DNA of 45,309 nucleotides from a bacterium. Its GTDB lineage: Bacteria > Patescibacteriota > UBA1384 > DTJR01. The notes beneath the pieces were generated by a model, which saw only the letters and a program-made list of their open reading frames with translations, did no database searches and had not been told where the DNA came from. The stretch is taken from positions 1-45,309 of the forward strand of contig JBDRAU010000082.1 in NCBI GenBank assembly GCA_043823315.1, written 5' to 3'. This document shows positions 3,767 through 44,161 of the stretch, piece by piece (position 1 is the stretch's first letter; every line of letters starts with the position of its first letter). Made by a program: the position numbers and the translations under genes.

Positions 3767-6700
3767 TCGATCCGCAAAAGTTCAAAAAGACGTTGTGCTT
3801 AAAGATTTTGATAAAATCAAACTGCAAATAGCTTCTCCCGAAGAGATTATTGAGTGGTCTTATGGAGAAATAACCAAGCCGGAGACTATTAACTATCGAA
3901 CTCAAAAACCCGAACGCGATGGGTTATTTGACGAAAGAGTTTTTGGACCGGTCAAGGACTGGGAGTGTTATTGCGGAAAATACAAGAAAATTCGCTATAA
4001 GGGTGTAATTTGTGATCGCTGCGGAGTTGAAGTAACAAGGTCCCAAGTAAGACGTGAACGGATGGGGCACATAGAACTCGTTGTTCCGGTTGTGCATGTT
4101 TGGTATATCCGAGGCGGCAGCGGAGTTATTTCAACTGTTCTCGATATGACAATTTCCGATATCGAGTCCGTAGCTTATTTTGCCGCTTTCGTTGTAATTT
4201 CAGTGAATGAAGAGCTCAAAGCCCAATCCTTGGAGCAGCTGCAGAAGGAGTTCGATGAAGCCAAAAAAGATCCTAGGTTTAAAAACAACGAAATTGCGCT
4301 AAGTAAACTAGAAGCTTCTTTTAAGGCTTCAAGAAGCGAGCTTCAGTCAATCCAATACAAGAAGGTCCTAAGTGAAAGCGAGTACACCTCTATCTCATTG
4401 AAATACGGAAATGTTGCCAAAGTTGCAATCGGTGCAGAGGCAATTCTAGAGCTTCTCAAAAACACCGACTTGAACAATGAGATCAAAAATCGTGAGGGGC
4501 GCTTAGAGGGTAGTATTACAGCCAATAGAAAGAAGTTGCTTAGATCGCTTAAAGTATTTAAAGATATGAAGTCAGCCGGCATAAAACCGGAGTGGTTAAT
4601 TATAAAGAACCTTCCTGTTATTCCACCTGATTTAAGACCGATGGTTCAGCTTGACGGAGGGAGATTTGCCGCCTCCGACTTAAATGATCTGTACAGAAGA
4701 GTGTTGAACAGAAATAATCGTCTTAAAAAACTTCTTACAGCGGGAGCCCCGGAAGTTATCTGCAGAAACGAAAAGAGAATGTTGCAGGAGGCTGTGGACG
4801 CTCTTCTTGATAATTCAGCGCGACGCGGAAGAGCTGCAGTTGCCGGAAACCAGAGAAAACTACGAAGCCTATCTGATATCCTAAGGGGTAAACAGGGCAG
4901 ATTCAGACAAAACCTGCTTGGTAAAAGAGTCGATTATTCGGGCCGTTCAGTTATTGTTATCGGACCGGATCTCGAGCTTCATCAATGTGGAATTCCTAAG
5001 GTAATGGCCCTCGAACTATTCAAAACATTTGTCATCGCTAAATTAATTAGCGAGGGTCACGTCTACAACGTCAAGAATGCTACAAAGCTTATCGAACAGA
5101 AAGATCCAGTCGTCTGGGATGTTCTGGAGCAAGTTACTGCAGGTCATTATGTTATGCTTAATCGCGCTCCGACCTTGCACCGGCTCGGAATCCAAGCATT
5201 CCTTCCGGTTTTAATTGAAGGAAAAGCTATTCAGATTCATCCGCTTGTTTGTCAGGCATTTAACGCTGACTTTGACGGCGACCAAATGGCTGTCCACGTT
5301 CCTCTTTCCGACAATGCCAAAAAAGAGGCAGGCGAGATAATGCTTTCGAGTAAAAACCTGTTAAAGCCCGCCTCGGGAGAGCCGATTGTGACTCCTCGAT
5401 TTGATATGATTTTGGGCTGTTATTACATAACCGATATGAAGATGGATACTGACAGGCCAAAAACCTATTCGGGTAAAAATGAAGCTATTATGGCATGGCA
5501 GACAGGCAATATAAGACTCAAGACCACTATGAGATTAAGAACCGATGATGAAATCCGGGAGACCGATACTGAGGTAAGCGAGAAAGACGATCACAGAATA
5601 ATTGAGACATGCGTAGGGAGAATTCTGTTCAACAATATCCTTCCTGACGGTTTTGGATTTATAAACAAGGCCATAGACGCTAAAGTAATGAAAAGCATTG
5701 TCTCTGAAGTTTTCAAGTTGCACGGTAGTGAAACGACCGCCAAACTGCTAGATAAAGTAAAATCACTCGGTTTTGAGTATGCAACAATATCTGGAATGTC
5801 AATCGGAATCGACGATATTGAAGTTCCAGATGAAAAAGAAGGAATAGTCAAAAAGACTCAAGAAAAAATTGACGAAACTGAAACACTGCATCGCCGAGGA
5901 TTAATTACACCTGACGAAAAACGAATTAAATCGATTGATTACTGGTCAGAGGCACGAACGCAAATAGAAAAGAAGATGATGGAAAATTATTCACTGGATA
6001 ATCCGGTTTTAACTTATGTTAATTCCGGAACAAGGGGCTCCGTTGCTCAACTTATCCAGATGGCAGGGATGAAGGGTCTGGTTGTTAACCCAGCCGGTGA
6101 AATAATTGAAATCCCGATTATTTCAAACTATCGAGAAGGTTTGACGGTATTCGAATACTTTATCTCTTCGCACGGTTCGAGGAAGGGTCGATCTGACACT
6201 TCGCTTCGAACCTCCGATGCCGGTTACCTTACCAGAAGACTCGTTGATGTGGCCCAGGAAATAATCGTAAGAAACAATGACTGCAAAACAGAGGATGGGA
6301 TAGAAATGATAAGGGCTGAATCAGAAGACTTTGGCGAGAGCTTCCAGGATCGAATAGATGGAAGAATTGCCGCTAAAGCAGTTAAAGTTAAGAATAAAAC
6401 TTTAGTCAAATCAGGAGAAGAAATTACCAAAGTATTATCAATTGAAATTGCCAAGAGTGATGTTGAATCTGTGGTGGTTAGATCAGTGGCATACTGTAAG
6501 GAAACCTATGGAGTTTGTCAGAAATGTTATGGTCGCGATTTGGCAACCGGTACGATAGTAGAAAAAGGAGTTACGGTCGGAGTAATTGCCGCCCAGGCGA
6601 TTGGCGAACCGGGTACCCAGCTTACCATGAAAACATTCCATCTTGGAGGAGTTTCCGGTGAAGACATAACATCCGGACTTCCGAGAGTTGAAGAGCTTTT

Positions 6701-8486: not shown

Positions 8487-10592
8487 ATGTCAAGAGAATA
8501 TACGCTGGAAAGAACAAGAAATATCGGGATAATCGCTCACATTGATGCGGGAAAAACCACCGTAACAGAGCGCGTACTTTTCTATACCGGTAAAAAACAC
8601 AAGATAGGTGAAGTTCATGAAGGCCAAGCGGAAATGGACTGGATGGAACAGGAGAAAGAGCGCGGTATTACCATTACCTCTGCAGCAACGACTTGTTTTT
8701 GGGCTCCTCGAGAAGAAAAAGCCAAAGACACCAGAATCAATATTATCGACACTCCGGGACATGTTGATTTCACCGTTGAGGTCGAGAGATCTCTTCGCGT
8801 TCTTGATGGCGGAGTGGTTGTATTTGACGGCGTTGCAGGAGTTGAGCCGCAAAGCGAAACTGTCTGGAGACAAGCTGACAAGTACTCGGTGCCAAGGATC
8901 TGCTTTATAAATAAGTTAGACAGAATGGGAGCTGATTTTTACAAAAGCTATCAAAGTATCTTGGATAAATTGGGGGCGAATGCAGTTCCAGTTCAGATTC
9001 CAATTGGCAGTGAAGACAAATTATCGGGCATTATTGATTTAGTTAAAATGCAAGCTTTTATGTTTAAAGATGATTTGGGAAGAGAGACCCAAAAGACAGA
9101 AATTTCTTCAGAAAACCTAGAAGAAGCAAAAAAATGGCGTTCTCATCTCGAAGAAAAAGTAGCAGAAACGAGTGAGGAACTCCTGAATAATTATCTGGCT
9201 AACGAAACCCTTAACTTAGATGAATTAAGAGAGGGAATCAGACAAGCAACAATAAAAAACGAACTCGTACCGGTATTGACCGGATCGGCTCTTAAAAACA
9301 AAGGAGTACAGCTTCTGCTTGATGCAGTTGTTGATTATTTGCCAAGTCCTCTTGAGGTTCCTCCGATGCATGGAAAAATGTTAAAAACCGAAGAGGATGT
9401 CGAGATCAAAACTAACGATGACGACAGCTTCTGTGCTTTAGCGTTTAAGATTGCTACAGATCCTTTCGTGGGAAGACTTTCCTATATTAGAGTATATTCT
9501 GGTGTTTTGAAGTCAGGAAGTTACATTATAAACAGCACAACCGGCGAAAAAGAAAGAGTCGGAAGAATTTTGAGAATGCACGCCAATCATAGAGAAGAAG
9601 TCCAAGCCGTCTATTCTGGGGAAATCGCGGCAATAGTAGGACTTAAGAATACCACGACCGGTAATACTCTGTGTGATCCGTCAAGACAAGTAATTCTTGA
9701 ATCGATAATTTTCCCTGAACCAGTCATTCAAATTGCTATTGAACCGAAAACAAAAGCCGATCAAGCCAAAATGGGCCTGGCGCTCGCGAAGCTTGCAGAA
9801 GAGGATCCGACCTTTAGAATTACCTCAAATAATGAAACAAATCAGACCTTAATTTCAGGGATGGGAGAACTTCATTTGGAAATTATCGTCGATAGGATGA
9901 AGAGAGAATTTAGGGTTGAGGCCAATGTCGGAGCACCGCAAGTAGCATATCGTGAAACGATCGTTGAGGGAACAAAAGCAGAGGGTAAATTCATTAGGCA
10001 ATCCGGTGGACGAGGTCAATACGGGCACGTATTTATCGAGATGCAACCAAAAGAACGCGGGACTGGAAACGAATTTATTAATAAAATTTTCGGTGGATCT
10101 ATTCCAAGAGAGTTTATTCCTGCCTGTGAAGACGGTATAAACGGGGCTCTTGATAAGGGAGTAATTGCTGGATACCCGGTAGTTGATGTCGCAGTTACTT
10201 TATATGACGGATCCTATCATGATGTTGACTCCTCGGAGCTTGCCTTCCAAATAGCATCTTCGATGGCTCTTCAAAATGCGGTAAAAAATGCTAAACCAGT
10301 AATTTTGGAACCGATTATGAAGGTTGAGGCCATAACTCCTGAAGAATTCATGGGTGATGTACTCGGAGACCTTAACTCAAAAAGAGCTCAAATCGGAACG
10401 GTTGAAGATCGCGGAAACGCCAAGGCAATTCCGGCAGAGGTTCCCCTCGGAGAAATGTTTGGATATGCCACTTCGCTTAGGTCAATTACACAGGGTCGGG
10501 CGAGTTATACGATGGAGTTTTTAAAGTATGAAATTGTGCCATCTAATATTGCTTCTTCTATTATTGAGGGAAGAAAAGTTTCCACAAGTTGA
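8487..10592 (+). CDS. fusA: Elongation factor G
   Basis: 701 aa with GTPase motifs [17 protein letters not shown] and NKLD, in str-operon order. Confidence 0.96.
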
Positions 10593-10617
10593 CGATTTTG
10601 CGATTATATGGTAAAAT
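10589..10617 (+). promoter_or_regulatory. Candidate tuf promoter (TTGACG-N17-TGgTAAAAT, extended -10)
   Basis: TTGACG at 10589-10594 overlaps the fusA stop. TAAAAT lies at 10612-10617 after a 17-nt spacer, with a TG at 10609-10610. Confidence 0.4.
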
Positions 10618-10656
10618 AAATTGAAAATTTAACGTAGAAAGAAAAAATTAAAACAC

Positions 10657-10679
10657 GGTTTTCGGAAGAAGCGAAAACC
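10657..10679 (+). repeat. Leader hairpin GGTTTTCG-GAAGAAG-CGAAAACC, same module as the hairpin inside the repeat family
   Basis: Perfect 8-bp stem at 10657-10664/10672-10679. The architecture GGTTTnnG / 7-nt purine-rich loop / CnnAAACC / T(T/A)AT matches the copies at 37370, 37470 and 40583. Confidence 0.5.
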
Positions 10680-10706
10680 TTATCCACACGAAAGGAAGGA
10701 TACGAA

Positions 10707-29855: not shown

Positions 29856-32339
29856 TTATACTACAAAGTTTACTATTTTGCCCTTTACAAAAATCGTTTT
29901 TTTAATTGTTCTGCCAACTAAGTGTTTCTTTATATTATCGAGTTTTTTTGCCTCTCCTACGATATTTTCTTCTTCCCCTTCGAAGTTAAGCAAAGCTCTG
30001 AATTTTCCATTTATTTGGACAGAATATATTGGAATTTTTGAAACAACCCTAACTTCAGGCCAACTACTATGAAAGATGGATTTTTCATTTAATTGCAAAA
30101 ACAAAGACTCACTCATGTGGGGCGCAAAGGGCGTGAGAAGCGTAAGAAATTCATTCCACTGCGATTTACCCAGTTTGCTGATGTCGTTATCGTTTGAAAA
30201 CTTCATCAGATCAGATACACCGGTGTTGAATAAGTTCTTTTCAATTTTCTCTGTTATGTTATTTGTCAGCCCTTGAAGATCGGCAGATGAATTGCTTTTT
30301 TGTGGTTTAAAGTTACTATAAATTTTTTCTAAAAACTTTCTTGTTCCTTTTATACCCTTAGTATTCCAAGTAGCACTTTGATCAAATGGGCCAATAAATA
30401 GCTCGTACATCCTCAAGGCATCAGCACCGTACTCATCAACTAACCCATCGGGGTTTACTACGTTTCCCTTGGACTTAGACATCTTTTGATTATCGGGACC
30501 CAGTATCAAGCCAACATTCCTGAGTTTTTTGAATGGCTCCACACTTTTAACTGCCTTTATATCAAAGAGGAATTTATGCCAAAATCTGGCGTACAGCAGG
30601 TGTAAAACCGCGTGTTCTGCTCCACCAATATAAAAATCTACGGGCAAGAAGTATTTATCGGCATTTTCAGAAATCAGCTCATTGTTATTTTTTGGGTCGG
30701 TAAATCTAAGGTAGTACCAAGAGGAACCTGCCCAGTTAGGCATAGTGTCAGTTTCTCTTTTTGCCGGTCCACTACAGTTTGGGCACTTTGTATTGACCCA
30801 ACTATCAATTTTGGCCAAAGGAGATTCTCCATCCCCGGTTGGCTCGTAACTTTCGATCTCAGGAAGCTCTAATGGCAAATCTTTTTCGTCAAGAGGAACC
30901 ACTCCGCATTTTTCGCAGTGCACGATCGGGATCGGTTCACCCCAATACCTTTGTCTCGAAAACACCCAGTCGCGGAGTTTGTAATTTATCGCAAATTTTC
31001 CGTGACCATTATCAATAAGTTTTTCAGTAATTTTCTTTTTGGCATCTTCGGAAGTCAGCCCATCAAATTCTTCGGAATTAATCAAAACACCGTAATCGAT
31101 AAATGCTTCTTCCGGATCTTTTAATTTTAAATTGTTATTTTGATCTTTGATTTTTGCACTTTGAATTACTTCAATTATTTCGATATTGTATTTTTTGGCA
31201 AATTTATAATCTCTGTCGTCATGCGCAGGAACTGCCATTACGGCGCCCGTACCATAAGATTCTAAAACGTAATCGGCAATCCAGATTTTTATTTCATTAC
31301 CGTTGATTGGGTTGATAGCCATAACTCCTTCAAGCTTGACCCCAGTTTTTTCCTTCTCAAGCTCGGCTCTTTCAAGATCAGATTTGTTCTTGATTTTCTC
31401 AATGTATTCTTCGACTTCGCTATAATTTGAGATCTTATCTTGTAATGATTTAACTAATTTATGCTCTGGCGCAAGGACAACATAGGTACAGCCAAATAAA
31501 GTATCGGCACGGGTAGTGTAAACCTCAATGCTACCCGCATTGTCATTGCGAGGAGGCTGATGACAATCAGGCGACGCGGCAATCCCTTCACAAGATTGCT
31601 TTGCTTCCTGCCTGCCGGCAGGCATGGCGCTCGCAATGACATCAAAACGAATATTACTTCCTTCACTGCGACCTATCCAGTTTCTCTGCATCTCTTTGAT
31701 TGCTTCGGGCCAGTCCAGTTCGTCAATATCATCCAAAAGCCGGTCGGCATATTCGGTAATTTTTAATACCCACTGTTTGAGTTTTTTCCTCTCCGCACGC
31801 GTATGGCACCTCACGCATTCACCACTTTGAACCTCTTCATTGGCGAGACCGGTTTTACATGAAGGACAAAAATTTATTTCAATATCGTCTTGATAAGCCA
31901 AGCCTTTTTCAAACAATTTTAGAAAAATCCATTGTGTCCACTTGTAATATTGTGGGTCAGTTGTGTCAATTTCTCGCGACCAATCATACGAATAACCAAG
32001 TGACTTTAATTGCTCCTTAAAATTTTTTATATTTGTCTTGACGACTTCCTGTGGATTCTTTTTGACCTTGATCGCATAGTTTTCAGCCGGTAGTCCAAAA
32101 GCGTCCCATCCCATTGGATGTAAAACATTATAACCCTTCAACCTCATATAATGAGCTATAGCATCGGAGGCACTGTAGCCCTTTGCATGGCCGACATGGA
32201 GACCTTCTCCGGAAGGGTAGGGAAACATATCTAAAATATAATATTTCTCTTTGTCTTTATCTAAATTACACTCAAAAGTTTTATTATCTTTCCAAAACCT
32301 TTGAATTTCGTTCTCTATTTTTTTGTGATTGTATTTCAT
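29856..32339 (-). CDS. leuS: Leucine--tRNA ligase, carrying an in-frame 33-codon repeat-element insertion
   Basis: 827 aa with the HIGH motif (GLHVGHAKGY), the KMSKS motif (QKMSKSKGN), and the CP1 editing-domain entry motif VYTTRADTLFG. Confidence 0.96.
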   Translation of the reverse strand: MKYNHKKIENEIQRFWKDNKTFECNLDKDKEKYYILDMFPYPSGEGLHVGHAKGYSASDAIAHYMRLKGYNVLHPMGWDAFGLPAENYAIKVKKNPQEVVKTNIKNFKEQLKSLGYSYDWSREIDTTDPQYYKWTQWIFLKLFEKGLAYQDDIEINFCPSCKTGLANEEVQSGECVRCHTRAERKKLKQWVLKITEYADRLLDDIDELDWPEAIKEMQRNWIGRSEGSNIRFDVIASAMPAGRQEAKQSCEGIAASPDCHQPPRNDNAGSIEVYTTRADTLFGCTYVVLAPEHKLVKSLQDKISNYSEVEEYIEKIKNKSDLERAELEKEKTGVKLEGVMAINPINGNEIKIWIADYVLESYGTGAVMAVPAHDDRDYKFAKKYNIEIIEVIQSAKIKDQNNNLKLKDPEEAFIDYGVLINSEEFDGLTSEDAKKKITEKLIDNGHGKFAINYKLRDWVFSRQRYWGEPIPIVHCEKCGVVPLDEKDLPLELPEIESYEPTGDGESPLAKIDSWVNTKCPNCSGPAKRETDTMPNWAGSSWYYLRFTDPKNNNELISENADKYFLPVDFYIGGAEHAVLHLLYARFWHKFLFDIKAVKSVEPFKKLRNVGLILGPDNQKMSKSKGNVVNPDGLVDEYGADALRMYELFIGPFDQSATWNTKGIKGTRKFLEKIYSNFKPQKSNSSADLQGLTNNITEKIEKNLFNTGVSDLMKFSNDNDISKLGKSQWNEFLTLLTPFAPHMSESLFLQLNEKSIFHSSWPEVRVVSKIPIYSVQINGKFRALLNFEGEEENIVGEAKKLDNIKKHLVGRTIKKTIFVKGKIVNFVV
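31542..31640 (-). repeat. 99-nt palindromic MITE/REP-like element inserted in-frame in leuS (codons 234-266)
   Basis: The termini GTCATTGCGAGG (31542-31553) and GCTCGCAATGAC (31629-31640) are inverted repeats. The inner motifs CGCGGCAATCCC and AGATTGCT match the intergenic repeat family. Length is 99 nt, or 33 codons: VIASAMPAGRQEAKQSCEGIAASPDCHQPPRND. Confidence 0.85.
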
Positions 32340-32676: not shown

Positions 32677-34194
32677 TCAAATTAAAGATTCATCAAAATA
32701 TTTTGGGCTTTCAAATCCCGATAATTTTAAACAAGTCGAAGCCACATTACTTAATCTGCCACCATTTTTAATTCTAATTGACTTGTCTTGATCAACGATT
32801 ATGAAGGGAACCGGATTATTAGTATGTTCTGTATCAATTCCGCCATAAACGGGGTTCACCATTTGTTCCACGTTGCCATGATCGGCAGTAATAACCAAGG
32901 TAGTCTGAGTATCCAGACAAACCTGCGCCAGCTCTTTTAAGAGAGCGTCTATGGTTGATACCGCAGCTAATGCTGCCCTGAAGTCTCCGGTGTGTCCCAC
33001 CATGTCACCGTTTGCAAAGTTGCAGATATAAAAGTGATAATCAGAATTCTTAATATGTGAAACTAAAGCATTTTTTACTCCCTCTGCAGACATCTGCGGT
33101 TTCTGCGCATAAGAAGCAACAGAAGGGGATGGTATTAACAATCTATCCTCAAGTTTATACGGTGACTGTCTATTGCCATTAATAAAAAAAGTAACATGAG
33201 CAAATTTCTCAGTTTCCGCAATATGAAATTGCTTTAAATTATTAATCGCATAAAAACCTCCAATAGTATTGTCGATCGGTTTTGGAGCGAAGACAGACTT
33301 AGATGGAATGTTTAGTTCTTTTTCGATTCCATAGGGAATAAATGTTATTAAATTTAACTTTACAGTCTTGTTTCTTTTGAATCTATTGAAGTTATTGCTC
33401 ATCAGCGCTTGCGTCATTTGTCTAGTGCGATCAGATCTGAAATTGAAAAATATTAACGTGTCATCGTCTTGGAATCGAGCTGTATTGTTAATTATTATCG
33501 GAGATAAATATTCGTCTGTTTCACCCTCTCTATATGCTTGAGACATTGCGGAAAGGGCGTTTGTGGACTTCCTTCCTGTGCCAAACAGTAAGGCGTTGTA
33601 AGCCGCTAATGTTCTTAGCCAATTTCCTTTTCGGTCAAGCATAACCCTACCCATTATTGTAGCTATTTTGCCACAGCCGTTCTTGTTACAGGCTTTTTCA
33701 ACCTCATTAATCAAGTCGAGCCCATGATATGGCGCATTATCTCTCCCGTCTGTAAATAGATGAAGGAAAACCTTTTGATGTTTTAGTTCGCAGCTTAATT
33801 TAATCAGAGCTAAAAGATGATTAATATTAGCGTGGATACTTGCATCCGAGAGAATACCAAGTAAGTGCAAATTAGTTCCTTTTTGTTTAGATCCCTGGAT
33901 TGCTTCAATTAAGACTTTATTTTTAAAAAAATCTCCATCCTCTATGGATTTATTGATTACGGAAACAGCTTGTTCAATTATGTTTCCCGATCCCAGATTC
34001 ATATGTCCGACCTCTGAATTACCTACCTCATCTCCGGGTAATCCCACAAATGTACCCGATGCCTCCACGGTAGTGTTGGGGTATGTACGAAGCAATTTAT
34101 AAAAATTTGCCGGTCTTGCAGTTGAGACAGCATTACCCCCCCAGCTAGCAGCCACTCCCCAGCCATCCAAAATAATTAATGCTAGTTTTTTCAT
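32677..34194 (-). CDS. gpmI: 2,3-bisphosphoglycerate-independent phosphoglycerate mutase paralog (divergent copy)
   Basis: 505 aa with LIILDGWG, GNSEVGH (catalytic Ser), TDGRD, NFRSDR, FANGDMVGHTG, ITADHGN and EHTNNPVPF. Substrate-pocket motifs deviate: ASIHAN replaces GGVHSH, and VMLDRKGNWLR replaces YAMDRDKRWDR. Confidence 0.85.
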   Translation of the reverse strand: MKKLALIILDGWGVAASWGGNAVSTARPANFYKLLRTYPNTTVEASGTFVGLPGDEVGNSEVGHMNLGSGNIIEQAVSVINKSIEDGDFFKNKVLIEAIQGSKQKGTNLHLLGILSDASIHANINHLLALIKLSCELKHQKVFLHLFTDGRDNAPYHGLDLINEVEKACNKNGCGKIATIMGRVMLDRKGNWLRTLAAYNALLFGTGRKSTNALSAMSQAYREGETDEYLSPIIINNTARFQDDDTLIFFNFRSDRTRQMTQALMSNNFNRFKRNKTVKLNLITFIPYGIEKELNIPSKSVFAPKPIDNTIGGFYAINNLKQFHIAETEKFAHVTFFINGNRQSPYKLEDRLLIPSPSVASYAQKPQMSAEGVKNALVSHIKNSDYHFYICNFANGDMVGHTGDFRAALAAVSTIDALLKELAQVCLDTQTTLVITADHGNVEQMVNPVYGGIDTEHTNNPVPFIIVDQDKSIRIKNGGRLSNVASTCLKLSGFESPKYFDESLI

Positions 34195-35739
34195 TTAGCT
34201 CATCATCGATTTTAAATTTATGCCTGTCATTTCCTTCGGCTTACTAATACCCAAAGAATCTAGGACTGTTGGTGCAATATCAGCCAAAATCCCAATCGGA
34301 TCTTGGTTAAAAAAGTGCTCTTTATTGATGAGTTTCTTTTTCCTTTTTAAACTGCAGTTAATAAATGGGACAGGACTCAAAGAGTGTTCCTTGTTTGGTT
34401 TGCCCGATGCAAAATCTACCATCTCATCACAATTACCATGGTCGGATGTAATAAAAACATCATAATCGTTATGTAGAAGCGCCCCAACGCACTTACCCAG
34501 GGAATTGTCCAAGATGGTCAAGGCCTTTTTCGTTGCCTCAAAATTTCCAGAATGTCCGACCATGTCACCGTTAGCAAAATTAGCAGCGATAAAATTATAT
34601 CCCTTGCTTGATGCTTTAATTATTTCGTTTGAGATTTCTATTACTCTCATTTGTGGAAAAACATCGTAACTGGCTAATTTTTTGCTTGGAATTAAAATAT
34701 CCTCTTCTAGATGAAACTTTGTTCGATTTCCTCCAGAGAAGAAATAGGTTATGTGTGCAAACTTCTCGGTTTCAGCAATGTGAAGTTGACTGAGAGAATT
34801 TTTCGAGATTATTTCGCTTATGGGAAGTGTTAGTGAGTTAGTCTCGGGATTATTAAGTTCTATATTTGAAAAAAGTACGTTCAGCCCGAGGTTGTCATCG
34901 TATGTCGTCATCGAAAAAAAGTTTTGACAAAGACTTGTCCGTTTAATTTCTTTCAGGGATTTATCGACAAATGCTCTTGTAATTTGTACTGCCCTGTCGG
35001 AACGGTAGTTCGTAAAAATCATTACATCTTTTACGGGATCGAAAACCTTTCCCCCTAATGACACAGGGTCAAAGAATTCGTCTGTTTTTCCTGTCTTGTA
35101 ACTATCAGCAATAATATCTTCTGGTTTTACGATGGAGTTTTCCTTTCTTGTAATGGCATCATAGGCTGCTTGGGTTCTGTCCCAATTTTTATCCCTGTCC
35201 ATAGCGTAGAAGCGCCCCATGATTGAGCCGAAAGTTATCAGTTTTCCAACCTCTTTTTTTATTTGATCGAGAAACAAATTAGCAGATTTTTCTCCGACAT
35301 CTCTTCCATCGCAAATAATGTGCAAAACGATCTCTGCCTTTGGTCGAAGGCTTTTAATTATTTTTACGAGTCCCAATAGGTGTTTGATGTGACCATGCAC
35401 GCCTCCATTCGACATCAGAAAAAGCAGATGTACTTTTGAGCCATGATCTACTAAATTGAGTATTTTTATCAATTTAGACTTCTTTGCAATAGAGCCGTCG
35501 GTTATCGATTTAGTTATCTGCGGTAAGTCTTGCAGAACAATTCTTCCCATTCCAATTGTTGTGTGTCCGACTTCTGAACTTCCAAATTCACCCCACGGCA
35601 ACCCAACCTCCTCGGCTGAAGCTTTTAGCAAGCAATTAGGGAAATTTTCTACCATCAAATCAATATTCGGAGTTTTAGCGTTCAAAACAGCATTTCCCGT
35701 AACTTCTGGGGTTATACCAAAACCATCCAATATCAACAA
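34195..35739 (-). CDS. gpmI: 2,3-bisphosphoglycerate-independent phosphoglycerate mutase (canonical-looking copy)
   Basis: 514 aa with LLILDGFG, SSEVGH, NGGVHGH, CDGRD, GRFYAMDRDKNWDR, NYRSDR, FANGDMVGHSG, TSDHGN and EHSLSPVPF. The TTG start lies 18 nt after GGAGGG, so a non-canonical start further upstream (..INKVALLILDGFG) is possible. Confidence 0.9.
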   Translation of the reverse strand: MLILDGFGITPEVTGNAVLNAKTPNIDLMVENFPNCLLKASAEEVGLPWGEFGSSEVGHTTIGMGRIVLQDLPQITKSITDGSIAKKSKLIKILNLVDHGSKVHLLFLMSNGGVHGHIKHLLGLVKIIKSLRPKAEIVLHIICDGRDVGEKSANLFLDQIKKEVGKLITFGSIMGRFYAMDRDKNWDRTQAAYDAITRKENSIVKPEDIIADSYKTGKTDEFFDPVSLGGKVFDPVKDVMIFTNYRSDRAVQITRAFVDKSLKEIKRTSLCQNFFSMTTYDDNLGLNVLFSNIELNNPETNSLTLPISEIISKNSLSQLHIAETEKFAHITYFFSGGNRTKFHLEEDILIPSKKLASYDVFPQMRVIEISNEIIKASSKGYNFIAANFANGDMVGHSGNFEATKKALTILDNSLGKCVGALLHNDYDVFITSDHGNCDEMVDFASGKPNKEHSLSPVPFINCSLKRKKKLINKEHFFNQDPIGILADIAPTVLDSLGISKPKEMTGINLKSMMS

Positions 35740-35946: not shown

Positions 35947-36726
35947 GTGAATATAGATTTAAGTGAAAAAATAGGACTATCGGTCACGCTCAACAAGGAG
36001 AATCGTCTTGAATTTGGCGCAGATGTCAAATTCGATGGAGAATCTATTAGAAGCATGGCAGATCTATCCGTTGTCGCTGCCGATGAAAACCTTAAACTTG
36101 ATAACGCTCCAGCATATTTTATGTATCGCAATGTTCACAAACAAGAAGACGAAGCAAAGCTAGTCGAAAATAAACAACGCTTTGACTTAACAGTTATTCC
36201 TCGGAACAGTCTTGGGGAAGAATTCATTAAAACCTCAGGACACTACCATCCCGAGAAACCCGGAACTGGCGTTGAATATCCCGAGCTCTACTATGTGATT
36301 TCAGGTCAAGCGACCTATCTAATGCAAAAGCACGAAAAGGACGGGTCGATCAGCGATGTGATTATTTCAAGAGTTAAGCCCGGCGAGGCAATCATAATGC
36401 CCTTGAACTACGGACATGTCACTATCAACGAACTTGACGAACCGCTAGTTATGGCTAACTGGGTGGAATCAAGTTTCTCCTCGGTATATGGCGATTACGA
36501 AAAAAAGAGAGGTGCGGCTTATTATCTAAAAACAGACGGGTTTGAAAAGAATCCTAACTACGAAAATGTGCCCGAGCTCAAAACTATGACAACGAATCCA
36601 TTGTCAATTATGGATCTGAAGGATACGCTAATTTATAGTTACGTAAATAAAATCGACAAAATTGAGTTAATTGCCAAACCGGAACTCCATCTCGATGATT
36701 TTAAGGTTGAAAATTTATTTAAATAA
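35947..36726 (+). CDS. Cupin-type (archaeal-type) glucose-6-phosphate isomerase family protein
   Basis: Contains LTVIPRNSLGEEFIKTSGHYHPEKPGTGVEYPELYYVISGQA and IIMPLNYGHVTINELDEPL. These match the T-x-GH-x-H...E and P-x-x-x-H-x-x-x-N metal motifs of Pyrococcus-type cPGI. The start is GTG after GGAGG. Confidence 0.6.
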   Translation: MNIDLSEKIGLSVTLNKENRLEFGADVKFDGESIRSMADLSVVAADENLKLDNAPAYFMYRNVHKQEDEAKLVENKQRFDLTVIPRNSLGEEFIKTSGHYHPEKPGTGVEYPELYYVISGQATYLMQKHEKDGSISDVIISRVKPGEAIIMPLNYGHVTINELDEPLVMANWVESSFSSVYGDYEKKRGAAYYLKTDGFEKNPNYENVPELKTMTTNPLSIMDLKDTLIYSYVNKIDKIELIAKPELHLDDFKVENLFK

Positions 36727-37197
36727 AAAAAATACTTACCCAAAAGTAAATATTATTTTTGGTAGAGTAACTGGGCCTGTTGCTTTTTGAACCAGTTACT
36801 GGGCTTTTCAAATAGCGTGAAAATGTTATTATACTAATATGAAAACATTCTTATTTATTGATGGCTTTTTCTTCACGTTTCCCTTACGGAATGTCTTTTA
36901 AAACCAACAAGCGTATTGTATTAGATTATCAGAAGTATTTTGTCAAAAAGGCATTGCCTCTATTTAAGAAAAAGCCAAAATACTTGCAGATTATTGATAT
37001 AGATGAGGATGTTAAAGTTTTGCATGTATAGAAAGACCCGACGCTCATCACGTCGGGTAAGTAATTTCAATATACTACAAATTTTCGCTAATGTCAACTG
37101 TTTGAAAGCATTAGCGTACCAATTATCGTCTGAAAAATTACCCTTATTCTTCCCTAATGTATCCTCTGTAAAAGGAGGATACATAACTTTATAAAAC

Positions 37198-37560
37198 GTC
37201 ATTGCGCGGTACTCCAACCTGCCCGCCCGCCTGCAGCGTTGCAGCAACTTCGGGCAGGCAATGCTTAAAGCATAACTTTTGCAGGCGGGAACAATCTGGA
37301 TTGCCACACCCAGTAGGACTCGCGATGACAAAGGGAAGGTGTCATTGCGCGGTTGGTTTGTCATTGCGCGGTTTTGGGGCGGAACCAAAACCTAATGTTT
37401 CCTCGAAGCAATCTGTTCAGATCGCCGCGCCAGTAGGCTCGCGATGACAAAGGGGAGTTGTCATTGCGCGGTTTGCGAGTGGAGCGCAAACCTAATGCTA
37501 TTACTCCGCGGCAATCCCTCACTGTTTATATTAGATTGCTTCTCTATGCTCGCGATGACA
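37198..37560. repeat. Cluster 1 of GTCATTGCG-type palindromic repeats (about 4 elements)
   Basis: GTCATTGCGCGG occurs at 37198, 37341, 37360 and 37460. The inverted end CTCGCGATGACA occurs at 37319, 37439 and 37549. Elements span 37198-37330, 37360-37450 and 37460-37560. Confidence 0.9.
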
Positions 37561-37671
37561 ACACTTCGGACATTCTGCTGACTTGCAACAGCCAAAAAGT
37601 GTCAACAAAAAACCAGCTCTTGACTGGTTAGATTCGAACTAAATTATTTAGTCTATGCTAATTAAAAGGTT

Positions 37672-37758
37672 TGGTGGGGATGGAGAGATTCGAACTCTCA
37701 TGGACTAACGCCCAATGGTTTTTGAGACCATCCTGTATACCAGTTCCAGCACATCCCC
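37672..37758 (-). tRNA. tRNA-Leu (anticodon CAA), type II with long variable arm, CCA encoded
   Basis: The reverse complement GGGGATGTGCTGGAACTGGTATACAGGATGGTCTCAAAAACCATTGGGCGTTAGTCCATGAGAGTTCGAATCTCTCCATCCCCACCA has anticodon stem ATGGT/ACCAT with loop CUCAAAA. The T-arm is GAGAG-TTCGAAT-CTCTC. Confidence 0.88.
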
Positions 37759-40484: not shown

Positions 40485-40492
40485 TCAACATT

Positions 40493-40703
40493 GTCATTGC
40501 GCCTGCCCACCTTTGGCGGGAGTGTACACACGCGGCAATCTAATTCGGAGCTCAAGCTTCAGTTTGTTTATCGTCATTGCGCGGTTTGGGGGCGGAACCC
40601 AAACCTAATGCGCTTAATCCGAAGCAATCTATGGAGCTCAAACTTCAGCTTGCTTATTGTCATTGCGAGGTAATCCGAAGCAATCTATGGAGCCCAGATT
40701 TTC
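40493..40703. repeat. Cluster 2 of the repeat family, head-to-tail tandem (units about 80, 86 and a partial)
   Basis: GTCATTGCG occurs at 40493, 40573 and 40659. The block (C/A)GCAATCTAaTtCGGAGCTCAAgCTTCAGtTTGtTTATcGTCATTGCG is repeated. Confidence 0.9.
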
Positions 40704-40889
40704 TTGCCCTGCCGTAGCTCGAAGAGCGAAGGAGGGAGCTTGTTCCAGCACACTAAATCGTGAGCTCCGGCTTTTGGAACTTCTCGACTCTCCGGAGTTT
40801 ACCCCGTTTTTATAACGGGGACTTGCTCGAAGAATAAATTCAAAATTTTCTTTTAAATTAAATATCTCAATTGTTTCTCGAGCAAAACA

Positions 40890-43412: not shown

Positions 43413-43632
43413 GCTACCACCACTCTTATATCGTGTAAATAACTATATCGGCTCTCAAAAGTCCAATATGTTAGCATATGTCAGTAGATTCGCCACACTC
43501 TTGCACTCGTGTTTTTCTTGCTTTATAATTGAAGTAGTTAAGGAGGGTATTGAGGGTAAAAGTCTCTAAAATTTTTCGATATCCCGCCCAAATGTTTAGT
43601 TTGGTGTGGTTTTATGTGCGGTTTTTGGTGGT

Positions 43633-44134
43633 GTCATCCCGCGGTTTATTCTTGTCATTGCGAGCTTTTTCTTCGTCACAGTATGCTTTTTTTCTGTCAT
43701 TGCGAGCCGGTACTCCGGCGCGGCAATCTCACAACCTAGATCGCCACGGCAGTAGCCTCGCGATGACAACAAGGTGTGGTGTCATTGCGCGGAATTTTGT
43801 TGTCATTGCGAGCTCTGCGAAGCAATCTGCTCCGTGTCATCCCGCACCCTCCCCGTGTCATTCTGAGCAACGCGAAGAATCTCTCGCGTATGCGAGCTCT
43901 GGCATTCGCTCCTCGAGTCTGAGCGACCTCGGAGTCGAAGACCAGGGATCCTTATGGATAGATCAGGTTTGCCGCTTAGGAATTTTGCGATTCCACCTCG
44001 CAAAAGCTCTCGCAAACCGCAGGATGACACACAGATTGCCACGTCGCCGAATACGGCTCCTCGCAATGACAACAAGGTGTGGTGTCATTGCGCGGTTGGT
44101 TTGTCATTGCGAGCTAATGCGAAGCAATCTGTGG
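43633..44134. repeat. Cluster 3 of the repeat family: about 500 bp of nested or juxtaposed palindromic elements
   Basis: Core variants are GTCATCCCGCGG (43633), GTCATTGCGAGC (43654, 43696, 43802, 44103), GTCATTGCGCGG (43781, 44084), GTCATCCCGCAC (43846) and GTCATTCTGAGC (43857). Inverted ends lie at 43757-43768 and 44060-44071. Confidence 0.9.
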
Positions 44135-44161
44135 TTTGGTGTGTGTTTGAAAATTAAATCA

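Follow-up and report, generated by a model that had tools for sequence, protein, structure and literature searches.

The window analyzed here, the whole 45,309-nucleotide stretch of contig JBDRAU010000082.1, covers the rpoB-rpoC-str-S10-spc-alpha region of a Patescibacteria genome, a member of the candidate phyla radiation (CPR). The named relatives of its leucyl-tRNA synthetase (LeuRS) came from the Patescibacteria, Komeilibacteria, Paceibacterota and similar groups, the nearest being 64–68% identical. The window holds three clusters of short palindromic repeats (Table 1) and a further copy within the leuS gene, which was absent from the list given in the original prediction, a model's reading of this DNA from its letters alone. 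These repeats belong to a known kind of element, the CGTC-tagged repetitive extragenic palindromes (REPs) and Ssn-related motifs (SRMs), and represent a variant of it, in a CPR bacterium, that is itself uncatalogued.

According to a map of the units and predicted DNA folds, each unit opens with a (C/T)GTC tag that stays unpaired, followed by the lower stem ATTGC/GCAAT; a small internal loop and a variable upper hairpin are nested within this stem, and an unpaired tail C comes after the stem. The "palindromic element" of about 100 nt, which had been taken for the repeat itself, is an inverted, head-to-head pair of such units with the tags facing outward. The basic unit is each half, not the ~100-nt palindrome, because right-hand halves of the form ATCGC...GCGAT keep their self-pairing while pairing between the arms weakens, because sister families keep the same rule with other stems (ATTCT/AGAAT at 43856–43881, ATCCT/AGGAT at 43947–44029, and ATTCCCGC/GCGGGAAT in L142, a distant CPR genome), and because cluster 2 is made of three same-orientation units without inverted partners. 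Thus each half is a hairpin in its own right, and its lower stem is compensated within the unit (ATTGC/GCAAT versus ATCGC/GCGAT).

At least 17 closed units were mapped in the window, some of them longer than 20–50 nt and reaching 58 nt or more. With up to one mismatch allowed, the 45 kb contained 23 instances of the terminus GTCATTGCGMG where 0.74 would be expected, a count reached by none of 100 shuffles, and the inner box CGRRGCAATC occurred 21 times in the window against 7.9 expected. The elements had also been described as ending in GTAGG, which is true of two of the three elements in cluster 1 and false of the third. The string "GTAG" is the loop of a mini-hairpin in the right-hand unit, seen on the opposite strand, and this mini-hairpin covaries as well (GCC-TACT-GGC, GGC-TACT-GCC and, in the JGI metagenome contig L025, AGC-TACT-GCT).

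Evidence for conserved structure within the window came from the upper hairpins that begin with GGTTT. Direct reading of the sequence confirmed the original prediction on where the four hairpins, the termini and the compensated pairs of the stem lie, and the units at 37360 and 37460 are indeed exactly 100 nt apart. TAAT or TTAT comes directly after each of the four. In this subfamily the upper stem has 8 bp and a 7-nt purine loop and is followed by a TAATG spacer, and the lower stem, of only 5 bp, closes a loop of 40–43 nt. A fifth copy, GGTTTGGA-GGTGGAA-TCCAAACC, was found in L025, in an element ~85% identical to that at 37360–37451; its pair 8 has changed from G-C to A-T. Over the eight pairs of these five hairpins, a small sample from a rare subfamily that comprises every copy in the data searched, 40 of 40 cells were paired: five pairs were invariant and three, at stem positions 6–8, had changed on both sides. 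None of 500 shuffles matched this covariation, and the signal collapsed once the partners were slid. Similarly, for the pattern GGTTT-N3-N7-N3-AAACC, all three inner pairs were complementary in each of the four window instances and none was in the two instances with a loop of 5. The claim that selection has kept the structure of the internal hairpin rather than its sequence is therefore upheld. The further claim, of a function as RNA or single-stranded DNA (ssDNA), is supported as to a single-stranded form of the nucleic acid, most likely ssDNA.

Searches for this hairpin-bearing subfamily showed it to be absent from 185,579 species-representative genomes (the contig scan gave eight matches, all attributable to chance), and a scan of viral contigs gave no match. 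The metagenome scan, which permitted GCGMGG, became saturated with canonical units and added the single subfamily copy in L025. Concatenated translations of the repeats matched nothing at E ≤ 1 in a public predicted-protein set and nothing in Pfam or NCBIfam. Rfam, at the gathering threshold and at E = 10, returned only tRNAs and noise with no match to the repeats, and text searches of the literature with a DNA word from the repeat and typical translations returned primer matches or nothing.

The canonical units, of the form GTC-ATTGC-GA-[variable hairpin]-G(A/T/C)(A/G)-GCAAT-C, were far more widespread: metagenomes yielded ~120 loci with 55 unique complete head-to-head pairs (70–243 nt) and 112 unique half-units. 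To score covariation in the upper hairpin, the variable region of 88 unique units was paired by position from the outside inwards, without energy terms. Watson-Crick pairs filled 294 of 427 cells; in 1000 shuffles the count was 183 ± 7 and never exceeded 209. At tiers 4–5 there were four pair types, and one subclass had tandem G/A pairs at tiers 2–3. The upper stems were 2–9 bp long with loops of 3–7 nt, and 10–59 nt separated the halves of the lower stem. C-GNA-G, a classic stable mini-hairpin loop of DNA, was the commonest loop class (23 of 88 units), with GAA, GCA, GTA and GGA all represented. The compensated hairpin of the window is therefore a local version of a general feature of the superfamily, an upper stem that is free in sequence and keeps its pairing. 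Conservation outside the palindrome, scored with the anchor ATTGCG...GCAAT only, showed GTC upstream in 80–94% of units and C downstream in 82–85%. Of 50 elements, 25 had T and 17 had C before GTC, and the tail read CTC, CCC or CTG.

Two described groups of elements have this general plan. CGTC-tagged REPs have a CGTC or TGTC tag, a stem that begins with AT and a short tail, and they form head-to-head dimers (Di Nocera 2013, PMC3733652). They include Neisseria dRS3/NIME and Rickettsia RPE-4 and RPE-6, show complementary stem variants, occur as in-frame copies inside genes, tRNA synthetase genes among them, and have no dedicated transposase linked to them (PMC3733652). Our units have the same CGTC/TGTC tags and AT-starting stems (ATTGC, ATCGC, ATTCT and ATCCT) and share with CGTC REPs the short unpaired tail, the predominance of head-to-head dimers, the alternative complementary stem residues, an in-frame copy inside a gene (in leuS) and the absence of a linked transposase. 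They differ in build: the described families have continuous 8–9-bp stems, 4–5-nt loops, a 3-nt tail at or near CCA, and clusters only rarely, whereas the window units have a 5-bp lower stem, an internal loop, a nested hairpin, the tails given above, and clusters as the rule.

The second group consists of the NTS of Neisseria (CGTCATTCCCGCGMAVGCGGGAATCYRG) and, more broadly, the SRMs, which flank genes for single-domain GIY-YIG proteins of ~94 aa (Ssn, cd10448) in a repeat-gene-repeat layout that resembles an insertion sequence (IS) (Chenal 2025, PMC11893778). Ssn enzymes bind the hairpin as ssDNA only and cut a few nucleotides upstream, RNA and double-stranded DNA not being substrates; for SsnA, the three bases that precede the palindrome are important in cleavage, and the C that follows the palindrome is important in binding (PMC11893778). 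The units described here likewise have an unpaired (C/T)GTC upstream of an AT-starting palindrome, which is immediately followed by a conserved C. As in the SRMs, hairpin-forming repeats of 20–50 nt, a hairpin is formed in DNA folds (by the lower stem with its nested hairpin), and copies are numerous, clustered around genes, seldom inside genes and spread across phyla. They differ in the lower stem, which is ATTGC/GCAAT here and ATTCCCGC/GCGGGAAT in the NTS, in the bipartite nature of the stem with its variable nested hairpin, and in the host, a CPR bacterium with no ssn gene seen in the window. Because GTC and C are conserved at the very positions that are critical for SsnA, the units have the same design and gene association as the SRM/Ssn system. 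The statement in the original prediction that this family lacks a formal description must therefore be divided: the kind has been described (PMC3733652, PMC11893778), whereas the variant has not, as the published SRM string has no match to it. That motif also left 29% of ssn loci without a recognized SRM (PMC11893778).

The gene association was found in other organisms. A search for the GIY-YIG motif identified a 95-aa open reading frame (ORF) in L062 (148–736) located between two near-identical unit pairs; its homologues, 65–82% identical, came from Enterobacterales, Bacteroidota, Marinicella, Spirochaetales, WWE3 and Atribacterota. ATTGC-type units were present on both sides of the GIY-YIG gene, which encodes 95–120 aa, in seven of seven independent loci (L062, L143–L152, L153–L162, L163, L164 at 9732–10509, L165 at 9903–10386 and L166 at 5176–5570). 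Such loci often carried unit arrays of differing copy number, and the near-identical loci L143–L152 differed in their flanking pairs, with two to four upstream and one to four downstream. In three loci with 10-kb flanks, 10 of 12 units lay within 270 nt of the GIY-YIG gene. A survey of 75 ORFs within 500 nt of elements, at 49 non-redundant loci, identified GIY-YIG as the only recurring Pfam family; clustering of these ORFs by BLAST had shown no recurrent family, and it was a motif expression, a profile hidden Markov model (HMM) and Pfam that exposed the GIY-YIG genes. Pfam assigned the proteins to PF01541 only, NCBIfam contained no model for them, and the PDB contained no structure of this clade, the best match being UPF0213 at E = 0.05.

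Based on these findings and on the analogy with the Neisseria NTS/SsnA pair, we think it probable that the clusters are arrays of CGTC/TGTC-tagged, REP-like hairpin units equivalent to SRMs, which would be ssDNA targets of an Ssn-type nuclease. Replication, repair or DNA uptake, for instance, could expose single-stranded DNA in which a unit would fold, and an Ssn-type nuclease with a single GIY-YIG domain, itself a small protein, would then bind the folded unit. Sequence recognition by the enzyme would rest on the tag, lower stem and tail, and its cut would fall a few nucleotides upstream. Of the upper hairpin only the structure would be needed: it would close the large loop and hold the lower stem together, and its sequence would thus be free to drift by compensatory changes, as at stem positions 6–8. 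Recognition and cleavage of this type in the host organism are suggested by the Neisseria example, and the partner of the window units would be a putative Ssn-type GIY-YIG nuclease encoded elsewhere in the genome or since lost.

Several observations weigh against this interpretation. A profile HMM search of the 45-kb window and of the strain contigs found no GIY-YIG gene. The predicted folding of single units was only modestly better than that of shuffles (z −1.1 to −2.4). On the tagged strand of the 88 units there were 12 G-T pairs and two T-G pairs, an excess that an RNA role would fit too. The GGTTT hairpin was known from only five copies across all searched data. Lastly, the SRM string HGTCWYN(0-2)YYVSBRHN(0-5)WNVSBRGN(0-2)RNCYNB does not match the units: its only match in the window was a marginal one on the minus strand (44029), L062, L143, L153, L163 and L142 gave none, and it did match the control NTS sequence.

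Ssn nucleases were described only in 2025 and are being developed as the first site-specific cutters of ssDNA alone. ATTGC-type units represent a widespread repeat variant that the published SRM motif missed, and would extend the SRM/Ssn system to CPR genomes. Together, the window and the gathered loci separate the sequence-constrained part of the hairpin from the part constrained in structure only, and this natural series of compensatory mutations predicts which positions would be read by the enzyme.

Four other explanations were considered, and none of them accounts for both the conserved unpaired tag and the GIY-YIG association. Transcribed RNA elements, such as mRNA stabilizers, terminators, processing sites or small-RNA scaffolds, are in our view an unlikely explanation. 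They would suit the position of cluster 2, which begins 8 nt past the stop codon of a DUF456 gene with genes on both sides sharing one strand, the excess of G-T wobbles over A/C mismatches on the tagged strand, and the similar hairpin in the 5' leader of tuf. However, GNA triloops are typical of DNA and not of RNA hairpins, head-to-head pairs present both orientations, and cluster 1 lies between convergent genes and adjoins the terminator-like hairpin of a tRNA-Leu gene. The failure of Rfam to match the repeats even at E = 10 points the same way, and an RNA role leaves unexplained the conserved GTC tag and the link to GIY-YIG genes. Many REPs have been argued to be transcribed (Di Nocera et al., PMC3733652), but SsnA does not bind RNA (PMC11893778).

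The original prediction had proposed mobilization by a REP-associated tyrosine transposase (RAYT) related to IS200/IS605, as in REPIN-type elements. Like REPINs (Bertels and Rainey 2011), the window elements combine two short hairpins in inverted orientation and have a single long hairpin as an alternative fold. They too are non-autonomous and lack target-site duplications, and the cognate gene is flanked by repeats; a GTAG string stands near one end of several elements, and alternative complementary residues are known in REP stems (PMC3733652). The tag, however, is a terminal (C/T)GTC, and GTAG, as the loop of the opposite-strand mini-hairpin, is not an unpaired 5' tag. The flanked gene also differs, encoding a GIY-YIG nuclease in all seven loci rather than a Y1 HUH transposase. 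No Y1 transposase was present in the window or recurrent among the 75 neighboring ORFs, and no transposase has been linked to CGTC REPs (PMC3733652). We therefore regard the RAYT proposal as very unlikely.

It is more doubtful still that the hairpins are perfect palindromes made by snap-back or template-switch synthesis without selection, their compensated differences reflecting independent births. That all five GGTTT hairpins are perfect, with neither wobble nor mismatch, would agree with such an origin. Against it, four copies have homologous flanks and identical outer five pairs, and therefore descend from one hairpin, and G-T pairs, G/A pairs and decayed positions are found in many stems of the superfamily, a pattern to be expected if the sequence drifts while the structure is constrained. 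Least credible is a classical miniature inverted-repeat transposable element, a deletion derivative of an IS moved in trans by a DDE transposase. The ~100-nt size, terminal inverted repeats and clustering might speak for it, as might the candidate transposase, an rve integrase-core fragment with which the window begins (2–145). Against it, there was no target-site duplication in 50 elements, the sequence past the transposase stop codon is unlike TGTCATTGCG, and the IS fragment upstream of rpoB, compared by eye, had no similarity to the repeat termini. In addition, both halves form hairpins of their own that are compensated internally, some units stand alone or in arrays of one orientation (cluster 2), and no full-length IS ending in TGTCATTGCGAG inverted repeats was seen in ~0.9 Mb of related loci.

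The copy in leuS bears on how Ssn-type target units of this sort might spread. The insert, which provides 30–33 extra residues, sits at the entry to the editing domain of LeuRS. It was absent from the Thermus thermophilus LeuRS and from 13 of 14 aligned homologues, the 14th (P0044) having a different insert at the same site. In a syntenic relative (L167, 4502–6976) the site was empty and there was no unit in 17 kb. In leuS of L142, a unit of the CGTC-1/NTS type and its degenerate partner (~1807–1882) interrupt the gene at exactly this nucleotide (CGTTTTAA^TGTCAT in L142 and CGTTTTGA^TGTCAT in the window); the L142 unit reads TGTC-ATTCCCGC-GGAA-GCGGGAAT-CCA. Two repeat families thus have the in-frame leuS insertion point CGTTTTRA^TGTCAT in common. 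The 50 elements had no target-site duplication, meaning no direct repeat of more than 2 nt beyond chance; the AT...AT cases extend the palindrome. The in-frame copy recalls the Rickettsia element RPE-1 (Ogata et al. 2000), also a palindromic repeat of ~100 nt found in frame in essential genes at surface positions of the protein, from which it differs in sequence family and host and in there being one intragenic copy in 45 kb.

Given the IS-like repeat-gene-repeat layout, the distribution of the nuclease across phyla and the lack of target-site duplications, the nuclease or a mobile ancestor of it may have spread the units. We offer only tentatively, as a speculation with the odds against it, the stronger view that ATTGC-type units form a distinct, cross-phylum class of Ssn targets, with a lower stem read by sequence and an upper hairpin required as structure only, that is actively mobile and has a target preference. 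Should the shared leuS site be due to targeting, and not to that protein loop tolerating inserts, it would provide the first evidence of how Ssn-linked repeats spread, and, if this view is correct, the variable upper hairpin would be a freely engineerable part of the substrate in Ssn-based ssDNA tools.

The hairpin in the tuf leader had been counted as a fourth copy. The hairpin and its compensated stem are present, and it resembles the A-type upper hairpin in its stem ends, in having a purine loop of equal length and in its T(A/T)AT tail, but it has neither a unit tag nor any of the family's flanking boxes. In L142 the corresponding site upstream of tuf was occupied by an unrelated hairpin. 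The tuf-leader hairpin may be a structure of the host mRNA, a relic, or the source of the module. The fusA-tuf spacer (10590–10706) contains a sigma-70-like TTGACG...TAAAAT pair, then the GGTTTTCG hairpin, then a second small hairpin covering the Shine-Dalgarno region.

Table 1. Repeat units, hairpins and related features of the window.
Feature	Position	Strand	Description
Solo hairpin	10657..10679	+	GGTTTTCG-GAAGAAG-CGAAAACC; tuf 5' leader
Head-to-head pair in leuS	31541..31641	leuS on minus strand	In frame; 99 nt = 33 codons, translated VIASAMPAGRQEAKQSCEGIAASPDCHQPPRND
Cluster 1, element 1, head-to-head pair	37197..37331	.	Sequence, fold z −3.8, unit map
Element 1, left unit			Starts CGTCATTGCGCGG; long inserted palindrome CCCGCCTGCAG...CTGCAGGCGGG
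Element 1, right unit	37299-37331	-	TGTCATCGCGAGTCCTACTGGGTGTGGCAATCC
Truncated solo tag	37340..37358	+	TGTCATTGCGCGGTTGGTT; same truncated form at 43780 and 44083
A-type unit	37359..37413	+	TGTC tag, ATTGC/GCAAT, upper hairpin 37370-37392, TAATG spacer, tail C
Hairpin	37370-37392		GGTTTTGG-GGCGGAA-CCAAAACC; direct sequence reading
B-type partner	37420..37449	-	TGTCATCGCGAG-CC-TACT-GG-CGCGGCGATC; ATCGC/GCGAT compensated; mini-hairpin GCC-TACT-GGC
A-type unit	37459..37516	+	Upper hairpin 37470-37492
Hairpin	37470-37492		GGTTTGCG-AGTGGAG-CGCAAACC; direct sequence reading
B-type partner	37531..37560	-	TGTCATCGCGAGCATAGAGAAGCAATCTAA; C/A mismatch in lower stem; looks decayed
Cluster 2	40492..40685	+	Same-orientation units 40492-40540, 40572-40629, 40658-40685
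Cluster 2, second unit	40572-40629	+	Carries hairpin 40583-40605
Hairpin	40583-40605		GGTTTGGG-GGCGGAA-CCCAAACC; direct sequence reading
Cluster 2, third unit	40658-40685	+	Short form without upper GGTTT hairpin
Cluster 3	43632..44129	.	At least 8 closed units plus truncated tags
Cluster 3, ATTGC-type unit	43695-43728	+	
Cluster 3, ATCGC-type unit	43739-43768	-	
Cluster 3, ATTGC-type unit	43801-43827	+	
Cluster 3, ATTCT-type sister unit	43856-43881	+	
Cluster 3, ATCCT-type unit	43947-44029	-	
Cluster 3, ATTGC-type unit	44034-44071	-	
Cluster 3, ATTGC-type unit	44102-44129	+	

Independent public assemblies of the same organism stopped within clusters 1 and 2 (L010 at window position 40867, L011 at 37468 and 40729, L012 at 37386), so these repeats break short-read assemblies of the host organism. 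The ENA contig ERZ27247128 k141_1686960, otherwise 99.99% identical, lacked a 33-nt segment of cluster 3 (CTCCTCGAGTCTGAGCGACCTCGGAGTCGAAGA, 43909–43941). Comparison of strains was otherwise uninformative, as look-ups with neighboring genes gave the same locus or short contigs ending within clusters. To the right of cluster 3, identity between the window and this ENA contig fell to ~90% in a large gene.

The public gene call for the 1058-aa protein on that side (window 43550–44160; L133 10930–14103) starts upstream of the repeats, and the predicted N-terminus of this protein is therefore translated repeat cluster, the start being probably mis-called. A 142-aa ORF at 36960–37388 is likewise a repeat-derived call, without a family match. 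In practical terms, repeats of this kind break metagenome assemblies and yield spurious "hypothetical proteins".

On one side of cluster 1 there is a perfect 8-bp hairpin, ACCCGACG...CGTCGGGT (37036–37058), which follows the glucose-6-phosphate isomerase gene (stop at 36726) at a distance of ~310 nt; on the other side there is a terminator-like hairpin and T-run (37600–37635) downstream of tRNA-Leu(CAA) (37672–37758, minus strand). The gap that contains cluster 1 is therefore convergent and probably little transcribed.

Elsewhere in the window, the contig start (1–145) carries the C-terminal 48 codons of an rve-type (IS3/IS481-like) transposase (PF13333, E = 3.6e-07). The genes for S5 and L15 overlap and are not separated by an L30 gene (19566–20404), as expected for CPR genomes, and two tandem paralogues of an iPGM-like gene occupy 32677–35739.

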